A stretch of DNA of 64,000 bases from Promethearchaeota archaeon (lineage in GTDB: Archaea; Asgardarchaeota; Thorarchaeia; Thorarchaeales; Thorarchaeaceae), in NCBI GenBank assembly GCA_014728035.1, contig WJMJ01000078.1, positions 128,001 through 192,000 of the forward strand. The letters run 5' to 3'. The translations under genes were made by a program, and so were the position numbers. Of the stretch, positions 43,841 through 48,864 are shown piece by piece; positions within the stretch are counted from its first letter, which is position 1; the number at the start of each line of letters is the position of its first letter. The notes beneath the pieces are model-generated. The model did not search any database. It was not told the DNA's origin and worked only from the letters and a program-made list of their open reading frames with translations.

Positions 43841-45388
43841 ATGACACAAGATATGGCTAGGCAAACATGCAATATATGTAACGATACAAAAGCTTCGCAT
43901 CTCTGTGAAGGATGTGGAGAACTTCTTTGTCTTGAGTGTCAAGGAACAAAGTCTAGTATATTCTATGTTTGCAATGAGTGTCATCATGTTCTAGGAACAC
44001 CAAAACCTGGCGAAACATTTACTAATTGTCCTGACTGTGATTCAGAAAATCTGGGTGAAGGAAAACGGGTCGAGAATATTTGTCCTCGTTGCCATTCCAC
44101 AAAGACCGTTTTGCTAGAAGAAAAGAAACGTCATCTGACCCAGAATATCCGTCATGCCATCCAGAGCTTGTCATATGGACATTCAAAACTGAGAGAGTTC
44201 CAAAGCAAATTTACGAGTGCGAAACATTTGTTGGTATCACTGCGCATGGCGAATTTTCTCCACTATCATTGGTTAGAAACCAAGATGGAAGAAATCCATG
44301 ATGAAATTCCTGCAATCAAGACAAGAATTGCCAACCAAGCTGAGATAGTTGCAAGACAAATGGCTGCTGAAACTAAAGGTCTGATTGATTACAATGACTG
44401 GGAACCAGCACAATTTCCATTCATTGAGGGTGTCACCAATCGAGTGAATGAATTAGGAAAGCAATACAAGAGAGAGGTGGAGGATTCACTTCAGCAGATT
44501 CAACTTAAGCTAGATGAGCTCGATACCCAGCTTGAGGGCTTGAATTACTATCGAAATGAGTTTGCCAGTTTTTATGAGTTTGCAGAGCTATCGGTAAATG
44601 AACTACCAGTATCTGCATTTCCTGATGTTAAATTAACTGGTAGTGACTTTGTGAAAGCAGACAAATCTACTGGAACCCTATTCTTCACTAACAAGAGAGT
44701 CGTATTCATTGCTGAAACTGGTCTTGTAAGAAAGAAAACAGATGTGGTCTTCGACTACCCATTAATCTATTTGAATTCAATTGGAGAAGATGGAAGAATA
44801 AGAAAACGAGTTGTATTGAAATTCAAACAGGGAGAAATCAAAATCACGTGCTGTGAACAAACAGAAAGCGTATTACCAGATTACATTGAGATTGCTAGAA
44901 AATTTGACAAGTATATCCAAACAGACCTCCAAAGGGTGAGAAAGCTTGAACAAGCAGACCTCAATATCAGTGAAGTCCGAATGAAAATAGAGAATCTCGT
45001 TTATTCACTCTTAGCTCCCACCAGACGAGAAAAAGAAACAGACTATCGAGAGAAACAAAGATATATTCGCCCTCATTTAGATAGAAGAAGAGTTGTTAAT
45101 CCAAGCCAATACGATGATGAGAAAGGATTTCGAGAACACCTCGAGAGAACAATAGAACAACGTTCTCATGAGAGATATTCATATCCAGAAAAATCAGAGA
45201 TTCATGGATTAGAAAAAAGTCTTCAAGATTTAGAGTTTGCAATGCGTGACGCCATCCATCTACTGAGAAACGGAAGACTGATCCCTGAAGAGTTTATTAG
45301 AAGATACAAGCGTTTAGTGAGAGATTCCTATTTCACCAAGAAACGAATTAATGAAATGTCACGAGACCACCAAAAATATAGATGGTAG
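43841..45388 (+). CDS. ESCRT-associated multidomain protein: B-box-like Zn fingers, coiled coil, PH/GLUE-like domain, steadiness-box-like C-terminus
   Basis: Six CxxC pairs in the N-terminus; GTLFFTNKRVVF...FDYPL PH strand motif; C-terminal AMRDAIHLLRNGRLIPEEFIRRYKRL hairpin; adjacent to ESCRT-III. Confidence 0.6.
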   Translation: MTQDMARQTCNICNDTKASHLCEGCGELLCLECQGTKSSIFYVCNECHHVLGTPKPGETFTNCPDCDSENLGEGKRVENICPRCHSTKTVLLEEKKRHLTQNIRHAIQSLSYGHSKLREFQSKFTSAKHLLVSLRMANFLHYHWLETKMEEIHDEIPAIKTRIANQAEIVARQMAAETKGLIDYNDWEPAQFPFIEGVTNRVNELGKQYKREVEDSLQQIQLKLDELDTQLEGLNYYRNEFASFYEFAELSVNELPVSAFPDVKLTGSDFVKADKSTGTLFFTNKRVVFIAETGLVRKKTDVVFDYPLIYLNSIGEDGRIRKRVVLKFKQGEIKITCCEQTESVLPDYIEIARKFDKYIQTDLQRVRKLEQADLNISEVRMKIENLVYSLLAPTRREKETDYREKQRYIRPHLDRRRVVNPSQYDDEKGFREHLERTIEQRSHERYSYPEKSEIHGLEKSLQDLEFAMRDAIHLLRNGRLIPEEFIRRYKRLVRDSYFTKKRINEMSRDHQKYRW

Positions 45389-45389
45389 A

Positions 45390-46004
45390 CTACATTCCAA
45401 GTTCTTTTTCAAGCGACTTGATCTCGTCTTCCAGCTCTTCGGTTTCCGATACTGGTCCTGAAGGTGTAGGTGCTTCTCCAATTCCTGCTTCTCGGTCGAT
45501 TTCTGCCATTGCAGATGCAAGGTCTTCTGAGGTGACTCTGCTATCACCTGTTGAATCAAATGCTTCTTCAGTTATACTACTCTCAATTTCAAATTCTTCA
45601 AGTCGTCTAGAGATATCATCAATATTCTCAACTACTTTTGTAGTATCAGTAGCATCTCCGAGAAGACCCAGAATCTTGGAAACTCGTTCTACGATTTTTG
45701 TTGCTTGCGCAGTAGTTTGAGCCCGAGTGATATGTGCAAGAATTTTCAAAAGCTGTAATCTTGACTTATCTATTGATAGAGCGTATCGCCTAAACCGGAC
45801 CATTTCAGTTGCGTACATACGATAAGCTTCATTCCGGTTTTCTTTTCTTGCTCTTATAGCTCGAGCTTTGACATCACGTTCTTCTTTCTCCAATTTGTTA
45901 CGTTGGCGCTCAAGTTGTTTCGTCATAATACGAAGCTGACTAGTTACCTCTGCTATATCGGGTTTCTTCTTGCCCCATGAAAATGCCTTTTTCAGTGCGT
46001 CCAA
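45390..46004 (-). CDS. ESCRT-III subunit, Vps2/24/46 (CHMP1-3)-like
   Basis: Basic N-terminal hairpin (AYRMYATEMVRFRR resembling CHMP1-3), acidic C-terminal half, MIM1-like helix ELEDEIKSL. Confidence 0.85.
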   Translation of the reverse strand: MDALKKAFSWGKKKPDIAEVTSQLRIMTKQLERQRNKLEKEERDVKARAIRARKENRNEAYRMYATEMVRFRRYALSIDKSRLQLLKILAHITRAQTTAQATKIVERVSKILGLLGDATDTTKVVENIDDISRRLEEFEIESSITEEAFDSTGDSRVTSEDLASAMAEIDREAGIGEAPTPSGPVSETEELEDEIKSLEKELGM

Positions 46005-46150
46005 CAATATCACCAATGGAAAAGAATATTCCAACTCAAGGTATGATGCTATCCGTTTAAATCTTCGCAGAAAGGAAAGTATAATGAAGCAATTACACTC
46101 ATAACACGGAAGGTTTTAACATGTTCAGAGCTTTCAAGTAGTGAGTAATC

Positions 46151-47377
46151 ATGTCAGGAAATGGTGGCGATCGAGTAGATAAAGGTCTAAAAGCACTCCT
46201 TGACAAGGCAATAGACCTTGATAAACGAGGAATGAACAAAGAAGCATGCGAATATTATCTCAAATCAAGTAAGATTCTACTCAAACTTTCAAATTCCGCA
46301 TCACTTCCATCCATCCGCAAACACTATTTTGATCGAGCTCAAGAGTGTGTTGATCGAGTTCGATACCTTTCAGGAATAAAGAAGAAATCAAAGGGCCCAA
46401 CTGAAGGACTTAGTACGATACCAAAGAGACATCCATTACCTGAAGAAACTGCTGAGAAAGAATCCAAAGATGCAGAGAGAGAAGAAGATACGGATGCACA
46501 AAGGCTCAAAGACATGATTGCTGACACAATAATTACAGAACGGCCAAACATCAAGATGTCTGAAATTGCAGGACTTGACGAAGCAAAACAAGCAATCCAA
46601 GATGCAATTATTGCTCCAGCAAAACACCCAGAGTTATTCAAAGGGAAATCACGCCAACCTTGGAGAGGTATCTTGTTTTATGGACCAGCTGGTTGTGGGA
46701 AGACCCTAATTGCTAAAGCGGTAGCAGCTGAAGTTAATGCCACCTTTTTCAACGTGTCAGCCGCTAATATTGTCAGCAAGTGGCTTGGGGAATCTGAAAG
46801 ATTGATTATGACCTTGTTTGATCTTGCTAGAAAGAATCAACCAGCAATCATCTTCATGGATGAACTAGATTCGGTGGGAGTGGCAAGGTCTGGTGATGAC
46901 GTTGGGGGAGAACGAAGACTAAAAACACAATTGCTAACTGAACTCCAAGGACTATCTAGTAAACAAGATGAACGAATTACAGTCATAGGTGCAACTAACT
47001 TACCTTGGGAGATTGATTTTGCTTTACGTTCACGGTTTGAAAAGAGAATTCATGTGCCATTGCCTAATAAAGAGGCACGAACGGAAATTTTCAAAATTCA
47101 TATGGAAGATATCGATATTGATACAGATGTCGATTTCAAAGAACTCGCAGATTTAAGTGAGGGATACAGTGGAAGAGATATCAGCGTAGTCTGTCGAGAA
47201 GCCGCAATGGAGCCCATTAGGGATCTTCAGAAGACTGGGAGAATGGATGACGAAGGTGAAATTCTATCACTTAGACCAGTTTCTAGAAATGATTTTCTCC
47301 AAGCAATAGACAACATTCGACCAGCAACATCTCCAGAGGATATCAAGAAGTATATTGATTGGGCGGAGGGCTCTTAA
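46151..47377 (+). CDS. vps4: Vps4 AAA+ ATPase with MIT domain
   Basis: MIT (AIDLD...EACEYY), PWRGILFYGPAGCGKT, SKWLGESE, FMDELD, ATNLPWEID, RFEKRIHVPLP. Confidence 0.93.
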   Translation: MSGNGGDRVDKGLKALLDKAIDLDKRGMNKEACEYYLKSSKILLKLSNSASLPSIRKHYFDRAQECVDRVRYLSGIKKKSKGPTEGLSTIPKRHPLPEETAEKESKDAEREEDTDAQRLKDMIADTIITERPNIKMSEIAGLDEAKQAIQDAIIAPAKHPELFKGKSRQPWRGILFYGPAGCGKTLIAKAVAAEVNATFFNVSAANIVSKWLGESERLIMTLFDLARKNQPAIIFMDELDSVGVARSGDDVGGERRLKTQLLTELQGLSSKQDERITVIGATNLPWEIDFALRSRFEKRIHVPLPNKEARTEIFKIHMEDIDIDTDVDFKELADLSEGYSGRDISVVCREAAMEPIRDLQKTGRMDDEGEILSLRPVSRNDFLQAIDNIRPATSPEDIKKYIDWAEGS

Positions 47378-47380
47378 ATC

Positions 47381-48106
47381 GTGAGCACAAGAGAACGAAC
47401 ACGGGAGAAGAAAGAGAAGACCAAATCAAGAACTACAGAGAAAAAGTCAGAGTCTATTGATAAGAAGACCGAATCTGGAGAGAACGAGAGAACACCTAGA
47501 GAAGTCGCCAAATCTGTTATAGGACGAACAGCTGAAAAAACCACCCAACACAGTAGCTTAGAATCGGGAAAAACTACTCAAGTCACCGATTCCATTCAAC
47601 CTCTACTTCCATTATGGGGAAACCGAGAAGAGAGTGAGTGGATGTATCACATTCCAGATAGAGGTGATGACAAGAAAATGTGGGCACAGGAGTGGGCGGA
47701 TTTTCTTCTTGAATGGACACAGGATAAAGTCGTACACATAATTTCAGTTACTATGTTCCTCAAGGAATCACCCTTTAACGAAATTCTAGGAAAATCTGAT
47801 GCTTTCAAAATGATTGGAGATGCACTAGTAGAAAAGGAAATGGCAGATTGGACAAGTAGAAAGAAAAGGCAACTTCGAATCTATTGGAGGCCATTAGAGG
47901 AGTGGGCGGATATCATTTATCAATGGGCTCTGGAAACTGGGCAAATCCGATTAGATGTCAAATCATTAATCATTCAAAACGCGGATCAAGATTTTGCTTC
48001 TCTGCCTGAGAAAGACCTGTATATAGTCATGGAACTGATGGTCGAAAAAGAATTTGCAGAATGGGTAGATAAGAAAAGAGGGGCTATCAAAGTCAACCTG
48101 ATTTAA
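47381..48106 (+). CDS. vps25: ESCRT-II Vps25 homolog with charged N-terminal extension
   Basis: EWADFLLEW and IYWRPLEEWADIIYQWA match the Vps25 WRxPEEWxxxIYxW signature. Confidence 0.85.
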   Translation: MSTRERTREKKEKTKSRTTEKKSESIDKKTESGENERTPREVAKSVIGRTAEKTTQHSSLESGKTTQVTDSIQPLLPLWGNREESEWMYHIPDRGDDKKMWAQEWADFLLEWTQDKVVHIISVTMFLKESPFNEILGKSDAFKMIGDALVEKEMADWTSRKKRQLRIYWRPLEEWADIIYQWALETGQIRLDVKSLIIQNADQDFASLPEKDLYIVMELMVEKEFAEWVDKKRGAIKVNLI

Positions 48107-48111
48107 CTAGT

Positions 48112-48864
48112 TTACATGGGATTCTGACCACTCTCAGATTCATCACGAGCTCGTAATCCAGGGAACCAATATCGCCCACCTGTGGAAAATCTTCGATCGG
48201 CTACGGCCATCCCGGCTTCAACTAAACTGCCAAGTACTTGTCTAGCATGGTCTTCTGACCACTTTAGACGCATCATAACTTCTTCAATTGATGTGAATCC
48301 TTTAGAAGCAGCTAGGTTTATCACGTCCGATTGGTCTCTTCGTAATTCAAGCGGCCTAAGCTCTACAACTTTCACTCCACATCTCAATGTACGGATTCCA
48401 GGAATAAGACCATGTTCAGCAACCATATTCACAGCTTGAATTACATCATTGTATGAAACTGATTTCAACTGAGGAATCTTTCGAACGACTTCAACAATAA
48501 GCTCAGCGAGCCCCATTAGACCTTTTGATGAATTTGCAGTTGCAACATCTAATACAGCAAGTCCAATAAAATCATAGTATTCTTCTTCCGACATTCCTTC
48601 GGGCAAGGTACTCTGAATAGAGGATACGTTAAGCATTCTTAGAGCCTCTGGAAAATCTCGAGAGAGCATTTCACCATCAAGAAATGATTGAATGTCAACT
48701 CCAAATTGTCTAAGCTCTTTTATGTAATTCCGAACTTCGTAAACGAGTGCTTCTGACTCTCTCTGATATGACCTGATGTCGACAACGCCATGATCGAACA
48801 TCTTTTTGAGTTGGTCGAGTGTTGCTATTGAGGCGTATAGCTCAGATTGAAGTCGATTCTGCAT
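48112..48864 (-). CDS. vps22: ESCRT-II Vps22/EAP30 homolog with a Vps28-like N-terminal module
   Basis: Tandem winged helices (ELRRDQSDVINLA..KGF...LKWSEDHARQVL..LV..G....D.....YWFPG); N-terminus ELYASIATLDQLKK...DFPEALRML resembles Vps28-N. Confidence 0.8.
   Translation of the reverse strand: MQNRLQSELYASIATLDQLKKMFDHGVVDIRSYQRESEALVYEVRNYIKELRQFGVDIQSFLDGEMLSRDFPEALRMLNVSSIQSTLPEGMSEEEYYDFIGLAVLDVATANSSKGLMGLAELIVEVVRKIPQLKSVSYNDVIQAVNMVAEHGLIPGIRTLRCGVKVVELRPLELRRDQSDVINLAASKGFTSIEEVMMRLKWSEDHARQVLGSLVEAGMAVADRRFSTGGRYWFPGLRARDESESGQNPM

Follow-up and report, generated by a model that had tools for sequence, protein, structure and literature searches.

Steadiness-box hairpins of ESCRT-I type in the outer genes of a Thorarchaeial ESCRT gene cluster

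[quoted passage not shown] A five-gene ESCRT cluster in a Thorarchaeota genome raises the question of where ESCRT-I resides when neither ubiquitin nor a stand-alone Vps23 or Vps28 is encoded alongside it. The cluster occupies positions 43841-48864 of a 64,000-nucleotide stretch (the window; G000:C44:128001-192000, contig WJMJ01000078.1) of a metagenome-assembled genome (MAG) of 4.33 Mb in 173 contigs, with a completeness of 97.9% and a contamination of 8.5%. Its five adjacent open reading frames (ORFs) lie exactly where a preliminary description of the DNA had placed five ESCRT genes. In order, they encode a Znr_CC_PH_SB protein (zinc module, coiled coil, PH domain and steadiness box; gene 1), ESCRT-III, Vps4, Vps25 and a Vps28N-Vps22 chimera (gene 5). 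Standard annotation overlooks ESCRT-I here, as that description had foreseen: the Pfam cut-offs miss all ESCRT-I parts. Profile and model comparisons place such parts in both outer genes. The helix-(G/D)-helix hairpin previously noticed in each of them is found in the AlphaFold2 (AF2) models (helices H449-476/H482-514 of gene 1 and H2-24/H30-53 of gene 5). Each hairpin also matches an ESCRT-I family, a result on which the preliminary description had made its reading depend: that of gene 1 matches the Vps23 core (E 6.8e-7) and that of gene 5 matches Asgard Vps28 (E 6e-11).

Gene 5 divides into two parts:

48112..48864, minus strand: gene 5, Vps28-N/Vps22 chimera, 250 aa (ORF; Pfam EAP30)
48625..48864, minus strand: Vps28 N-terminal steadiness box and the helices that follow it, aa 1-80 (BLASTP; superposition on 6vme_X)
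48145..48597, minus strand: tandem winged helices of Vps22, aa 90-240 (profile A2; Foldseek)

The Vps22 part is recognised by Pfam itself (EAP30, E 6.8e-14, above threshold). Human SNF8/EAP30 (3cuq_A, E 3.6e-19) is hit by A2, the profile of gene 5, over residues 90-240, and Foldseek searches with the AF2 model (predicted local distance difference test, pLDDT, 79.6) return EAP30 (3cuq_A, 9.6e-10) and yeast Vps22 (1u5t_A, 1.7e-7). In this model, the N-terminal hairpin (pLDDT ~90) is followed by two winged helices. Residues 5-96 align in BLASTP with Pfam-verified Asgard Vps28 proteins from two loci, L053 and L059, at 32% identity (E 8e-11 and 6e-11). The N-terminus of the model superposes on 6vme_X, one chain of a human ESCRT-I headpiece entry, with a root-mean-square deviation (RMSD) of 2.0 Å over 80 columns (TMt 0.69). 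Yeast Vps28 is matched by the N-terminus at E 0.012-0.018, and weakly by A2 over residues 6-68. Judged by these alignments, the Vps28-Vps22 fusion put forward in the preliminary description is real. The Vps28-N module itself is widespread, occurring in 223 of the 301 Asgard genomes sampled for our survey.

Other Asgard families suggest how the chimera arose. At L053 and L059, a full Vps28 gene (PF03997, E 1.3e-12 and 8.2e-17) has a full-length Vps22 gene (EAP30 profile 2-219) as its immediate downstream neighbour. Six further loci, from families f28, f13, f19, f15, f5 and f3, contribute five adjacent vps28-then-vps22 pairs; the sixth, L070, reaches the contig end 390 bp past vps28. In all, eight other families have vps28 as a separate gene. 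A single fused vps28N-vps22 gene is found in f1, the Thor family, and in f2, its sister, and the fusion is restricted to the Thor order among the sampled genomes. Gene 5 is thus explained most simply by a fusion of the neighbouring, co-directional vps28 and vps22 genes, still adjacent in other Asgard families, in the ancestor of the order. Parts of both partners are missing from the product. In the AF2 model, winged helices stand in place of the C-terminal four-helix bundle of Vps28, and a hidden Markov model of nine Asgard Vps28 C-domains gave no match at E<=10 across the whole genome. The N-terminal helical domain of Vps22 (EAP30 profile 1-60) is not in gene 5 either: Pfam aligns it only from profile position 61 onward, whereas other Asgard Vps22 proteins are covered from 2. 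The alignment shows that ~95 N-terminal Vps22 residues are absent and that Vps28-N stands there instead. As a 'Rosetta stone', the fusion supports a bridging role of Vps28, linking ESCRT-I with ESCRT-II, in Asgard archaea too.

Thor BAR-Vps28 fusions have been mentioned (Eme et al. 2023); a second Vps28-N copy was not found in this genome. Two weak PF03997 matches were rejected, one on contig C69 being a HerA-type helicase and the other, on C96 (E 0.13), containing an in-frame stop. An f15 genome (G029) carries a 95-aa ORF between vps28 and vps22 (L072:4840-5127, plus strand) that comprises the Vps28 C-terminal domain only (E 6e-9), and separately encoded Vps28 C-domains are mentioned by Makarova 2024 (PMC10936438).

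At the opposite end of the cluster, gene 1 is a larger, multidomain protein:

43841..45388, plus strand: gene 1, Znr_CC_PH_SB protein, 515 aa, ESCRT-I-like adaptor (ORF, homologues, AF2)
43841..44113, plus strand: zinc module, aa 1-91, a B-box/RING-like part and a zinc ribbon with six CxxC pairs
44114..44581, plus strand: helical bundle, aa 92-247, three long helices (AF2 H92-136, H143-178 and H189-240), possibly a stalk
44606..44899, plus strand: PH domain of GRAM/GLUE type, aa 256-353, rich in conserved basic residues (AF2 beta-sandwich, Foldseek, Pfam)
45026..45184, plus strand: predicted disordered, variable linker, aa 396-448 (pLDDT <50 over 396-427 and 439-448)
45185..45382, plus strand: Vps23-type steadiness-box hairpin, aa 449-514 (profile A3 against the PDB)

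The C-terminal hairpin (pLDDT 82-95) is kept in at least seven Asgard families, well outside Thorarchaeota. For alignment A3 (57 columns), we took the hairpin alone at 20 loci that represent several Asgard families. Against the PDB, 50 of the 57 columns are covered by the match to the yeast Vps23 core (2f66_A, E 6.8e-7; 2p22_A, 1.6e-6; 2caz_A, 3.3e-6); human TSG101 follows (6vme_B, E 0.002), and Vps37B is reached at E 0.39. Because A3 matches both the Vps23 core and TSG101, the profile evidence identifies the hairpin of gene 1 as a Vps23-type steadiness box (SB). Homology also connects the hairpins of genes 1 and 5: hhalign pairs them at a probability of 80% (E 1.4e-5), and their turn glycines fall in the same column. 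Matches of A3 to the phycobilisome linkers Glr2806 and ApcE were discarded: they cover the short turn motif only and show no fold-level match. The turn motif, R-x-G-x-I-x-x-x-E/D-F-ϕ-R-R, is present in three copies in the cyanobacterial linker Glr2806, with weaker partial matches in ApcE, and probably reflects convergence of a short helix-turn motif.

We found 168 homologues of gene 1; where a source is named, it is nearly always Thorarchaeota. The closest of those with a named source (76% identity) is a protein of the BAJATHOR MAG, which also provides the closest homologue of gene 5 (84% identity). An alignment of 28 homologues (A1) formed the basis of the AF2 model (pLDDT 78). As a full-length profile against the PDB, A1 gave a marginal Vps23 match only (E ~1), significance being reached with the multi-family hairpin profile A3. 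The six CxxC pairs are invariant or nearly so across A1, giving the three Zn sites by which Znr_CC_PH_SB proteins are recognised, and the zinc module weakly matches B-box, ANCHR_BBOX, DZR, FYVE and RING. The coiled-coil/helical region (AF2 helices 92-240) and the PH domain (256-353) are both present. Foldseek relates the latter to the GRAM domain of MTMR2 (RMSD 3.9 Å) and to the GLUE domains of Vps36 (2cay_A) and EAP45 (2hth_B, TMt 0.56). Pfam matches among the 28 homologues are to bPH_3 (20/28), GRAM (10/28) and Vps36_ESCRT-II (4/28); gene 1 itself gives weak matches only (B-box, bPH_3 and similar), and none to UEV or UQ_con. Two short conserved helices (residues 363-391) separate the PH domain from the linker, which is poorly conserved in A1. 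DH-PH RhoGEFs, the top Foldseek matches of the whole gene 1 model, were rejected as non-homologous bundle-plus-PH look-alikes (RMSD ~20 Å). Of the earlier proposal that gene 1 is a membrane-binding PH subunit, the PH fold is borne out by AF2 and Foldseek, and membrane binding is what we infer from it. A 601-aa protein of an f21 genome (G053; L059:9001-10806, plus strand) has a Znr-CC-PH front of the gene 1 type, with EAP30 winged helices (E 1.8e-11) replacing the SB; it matches the Vps36 GLUE domain weakly (1.8e-4) and is an Asgard example of a Vps36-like architecture.

The cluster and both architectures are already known, having been published in 2022 and 2024. In Hatano 2022 (PMC9192718), the yeast two-hybrid set includes ThorAB25_08990 ('SB'), 09000 (ESCRT-IIIA), 09010 (Vps4), 09020 (Vps25) and 09030 ('Vps22'). 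These are the same five genes, cloned from an orthologous cluster. The paper also describes Thorarchaeota as seemingly without ubiquitin, and the legend of its Supplementary Fig. 8 counts RING, CC, PH and SB among the domains of the ESCRT-I proteins drawn for Heimdall-, Odin- and Lokiarchaeota. Makarova 2024 (PMC10936438) treats Znr_CC_PH_SB (also Znr_PH_CC_SB; asCOG cog.011556) as a likely ESCRT-I component, probably ancestral in Asgard archaea, with a PH domain predicted to be membrane-associated, and describes an Asgard Vps22# (cog.002769) fused to an SB. Gene 1 shares with Znr_CC_PH_SB and ThorAB25_08990 the domain set and order, the place beside ESCRT-III and the proposed role; the sequence in the Hatano supplement is visibly close to gene 1, and there is no architectural difference. 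Gene 5 likewise corresponds to Vps22# and ThorAB25_09030 in its N-terminal SB hairpin, its two winged helices and its position at the cluster end. The Vps28 origin of this SB, made explicit here, was not found in the main text of Hatano 2022 or Makarova 2024. A 2023 preprint lists UEV-Vps23 as missing in Loki- and Thorarchaeia. For this window, the value of the analysis is confirmation; the explicit evidence for a fusion of neighbouring genes and two extra Thor proteins, described below, are modest additions. Znr_CC_PH_SB, ESCRT-III, Vps4, Vps25 and Vps28N-Vps22 are safe annotations for the five genes, and the locus is probably the Thorarchaeial ESCRT gene cluster in its canonical form.

Gene 1 homologues are present in 207 of the 301 Asgard genomes, including 73 of the 76 of the Thor family. 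The five-gene cluster is identical in eight of ten Thor loci; one locus is rearranged within 7 kb and one retains gene 1 and ESCRT-III only. Gene 1 likewise adjoins ESCRT-III, Vps4 and Vps25 in two other families, f12 and f15. The linkage of gene 1 to ESCRT genes in relatives, on which the preliminary description had leaned as well, is thus observed.

Profile searches found no credible match to ubiquitin (PF00240), UEV, UQ_con (E2), Vps23_core or Mod_r in the window or the whole genome, and no over-threshold Vps28 (PF03997) in either. The earlier statement that ubiquitin, E2, UEV and stand-alone Vps23/Vps28 are missing from the window therefore extends to the whole genome, where a search for ubiquitin machinery had been suggested. 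The only ThiF-type E1-like gene of the genome is on another contig. Ubiquitin (PF00240, over the Pfam cut-off) is found in 0/76 genomes of f1 and 0/1 of f2, that is, in none of the 77 genomes of the order, versus 196/223 other Asgard genomes. Gene fusion and ubiquitin loss fall on one and the same lineage; as only a single lineage is involved, their coincidence is no statistical evidence of a causal link. Thorarchaeota offer a natural experiment in which ESCRT-I/II modules persist without ubiquitin and the link from ESCRT-I to ESCRT-II is covalent. Taken together, the testable parts of the preliminary description are supported.

How could these proteins act together? The PH/zinc end of gene 1 may bind membrane or cargo, which would provide ubiquitin-independent targeting. 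By analogy with the ESCRT-I headpiece, its steadiness box and the Vps28-type box of gene 5 would pack together. The latter forms one polypeptide with the Vps22 winged helices, so that ESCRT-I could hand off to ESCRT-II without a Vps28 C-domain, the covalent Vps28N-Vps22 link replacing the non-covalent contact between the Vps28 C-domain and ESCRT-II. Vps22 would then bind Vps25, Vps25 would nucleate ESCRT-III and Vps4 would recycle ESCRT-III, so that the pathway could operate without ubiquitin. Comparing the cluster with the eukaryotic ESCRT-I headpiece (2f66, 2p22, 6vme) reveals homologous hairpins, with a Vps23-type and a Vps28-type box both present in the Thor cluster. The differences from eukaryotic ESCRT-I are considerable: UEV, Vps37, Mvb12, the Vps28 C-terminal bundle and ubiquitin are all missing here, and a covalent link holds the Vps28 box to ESCRT-II. 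In gene 1, the place that the ubiquitin-binding UEV domain has in eukaryotic Vps23 is taken by zinc fingers, helices in a bundle and a PH domain of GRAM/GLUE type.

Several points weigh against a compact ESCRT-I-like adaptor of this kind. The eukaryotic headpiece is made of three hairpins, whereas the cluster supplies two. In the AF2 model of gene 1, the PH domain and the disordered linker separate helices 92-240 from the SB, unlike the stalk-SB arrangement of Vps23. Single-sequence Pfam scans of the 28 homologues yielded Vps23_core four times and Mod_r five times, all sub-threshold. The VPS28 (PF03997) match of gene 5 is also sub-threshold (residues 7-81, profile 2-76, E 2.6e-3), as it is in 15 of 26 gene 5 homologues. 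To our knowledge, the phosphoinositides bound by GLUE and GRAM domains are absent from archaeal lipids. Finally, outside the cluster the genome encodes another Vps22-type protein (781 aa) and an SB-like protein that stands free; because of these two, the complex may include parts encoded elsewhere and be less compact than proposed.

The SB-like protein (~90 aa; G000:C103:42241-42510, minus strand, equal to L076:1501-1770, minus strand) was detected by a genome search with A3 at E 1.2e-4. Its helix-Gly-helix segment aligns with A3 over 51 columns (hhalign probability 96%, E 3.3e-9). It is present in 39/40 and 26/26 Thor-family genomes and in 0/124 other Asgard genomes at E<=1e-6. Against the PDB it gives no match to Vps23, Vps28 or Vps37, and hhalign finds it unrelated to the Vps28-type box (probability 0.9%). 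It has weak matches to SHOCT and GvpG as well, and the conserved neighbours of its gene encode a ZnuA-like protein and a transporter, not ESCRT proteins. For these reasons the protein is only a candidate for an ESCRT role: it could be a third hairpin for the headpiece or, alternatively, an oligomerisation module unrelated to it.

In the 781-aa protein (G000:C37:136027-138369, plus strand, equal to L060:8028-10373), the C-terminal ~215 residues form a full Vps22/SNF8-type module that includes the N-terminal helices. Residues 564-777 match 2zme_A in the PDB (E 1e-8), BLASTP relates the protein to gene 5 (E 1e-20), and the two share a YWFPGL ending. Of 30 other sampled Thor genomes, 24 encode it at full length and one more has it nearly complete, cut by a contig end. 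Immediately upstream, the opposite strand carries an unassigned 368-aa gene and then a gene for an Arf-family small GTPase. The protein is a possible Vps36-like partner, that is, a second large subunit of ESCRT-II. A more speculative and rather unlikely scheme would assemble gene 1, the chimera and the C103 protein, the last replacing Vps37, into a ubiquitin-free, three-hairpin ESCRT-I-like headpiece, with the 781-aa protein as a potential Vps36-like partner; fusion, loss of the Vps28 C-domain, loss of ubiquitin and gain of the small box would then be one lineage-specific rewiring.

The function of the cluster could also lie elsewhere. It is possible, if doubtful, that the five genes work in cell division or membrane repair instead of cargo sorting and that the loss of ubiquitin marks a change of job and not a sorting route independent of ubiquitin. 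Ubiquitin, UEV and E2 were not found, and ESCRT-III and Vps4 drive division in TACK archaea (Makarova 2024, PMC10936438); the retained ESCRT-I/ESCRT-II modules and the PH/zinc adaptor, however, suggest targeted recruitment. Division or repair is compatible with the structural model.

We consider it improbable that gene 1 is the counterpart of Vps36 and not of Vps23, namely a membrane or cargo anchor docked on the Vps28-type module, with the SB as a docking peg only. Its PH domain shares the fold of the Vps36/EAP45 GLUE domains (2cay, 2hth), with zinc fingers nearby and a likely membrane-proximal role, and four of the 28 homologues give the weak Vps36_ESCRT-II matches. Yeast Vps36, too, combines a PH domain with zinc fingers, and the f21 protein at L059:9001-10806 joins the same Znr-CC-PH module to EAP30 winged helices. 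However, gene 1 itself has no winged helices, its PH domain does not form an insertion within an ESCRT-II subunit, and the match of its C-terminus to Vps23 is significant. In addition, the MTMR2 GRAM chains outrank the GLUE chains in Foldseek (E 2.7e-3 versus 3.2e-3). The choice between a Vps36 counterpart and a Vps23-type adaptor is mostly a matter of labels.

Very improbably, the two outer proteins act independently or self-associate without any ESCRT-I-like headpiece, and their hairpins are oligomerisation motifs of a generic helix-Gly-helix type (SHOCT/GvpG-like): the G-x-I-x-x-E-E-F turn also produces the short phycobilisome linker matches, the small C103 paralogue matches SHOCT and GvpG, and Thor Vps22 self-interacts in yeast two-hybrid assays, as reported in Hatano 2022 (PMC9192718), but the Vps23 match extends beyond the turn over most of the profile, the Vps28-N match runs for more than 75 residues to true Vps28, and synteny with ESCRT genes is conserved.

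Between the Vps23-type adaptor and the Vps28-N/Vps22 chimera of our preferred reading lie the remaining features of the cluster:

45390..46034, minus strand: ESCRT-III (Snf7 family), 214 aa (Pfam Snf7, E 1.2e-9)
46035..46150, no strand: divergent intergenic region between ESCRT-III and vps4, 116 bp (gene coordinates)
46151..47377, plus strand: Vps4 AAA ATPase, 408 aa, with MIT, AAA, lid and Vps4_C (Pfam)
47381..48106, plus strand: Vps25, 241 aa, beginning 3 bp past vps4 (Pfam ESCRT-II, E 3.9e-13)

The five ORFs alternate between strands and form four transcription units, not a single operon. Whereas vps4 and vps25 make up one unit, the remaining genes are separate and convergent or divergent, and the 116-bp region is presumed to be a bidirectional promoter. 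Vps25 carries a low-complexity N-terminal extension of ~75 residues, rich in Lys, Glu, Thr and Ser, ahead of its winged helices (47381-47600). Far from the cluster, the genome encodes a second ESCRT-III (Snf7) paralogue (G000:C37:92455-92940, plus strand, E 3.6e-18), which presumably belongs to the other of the two ESCRT-III types of Asgard archaea.

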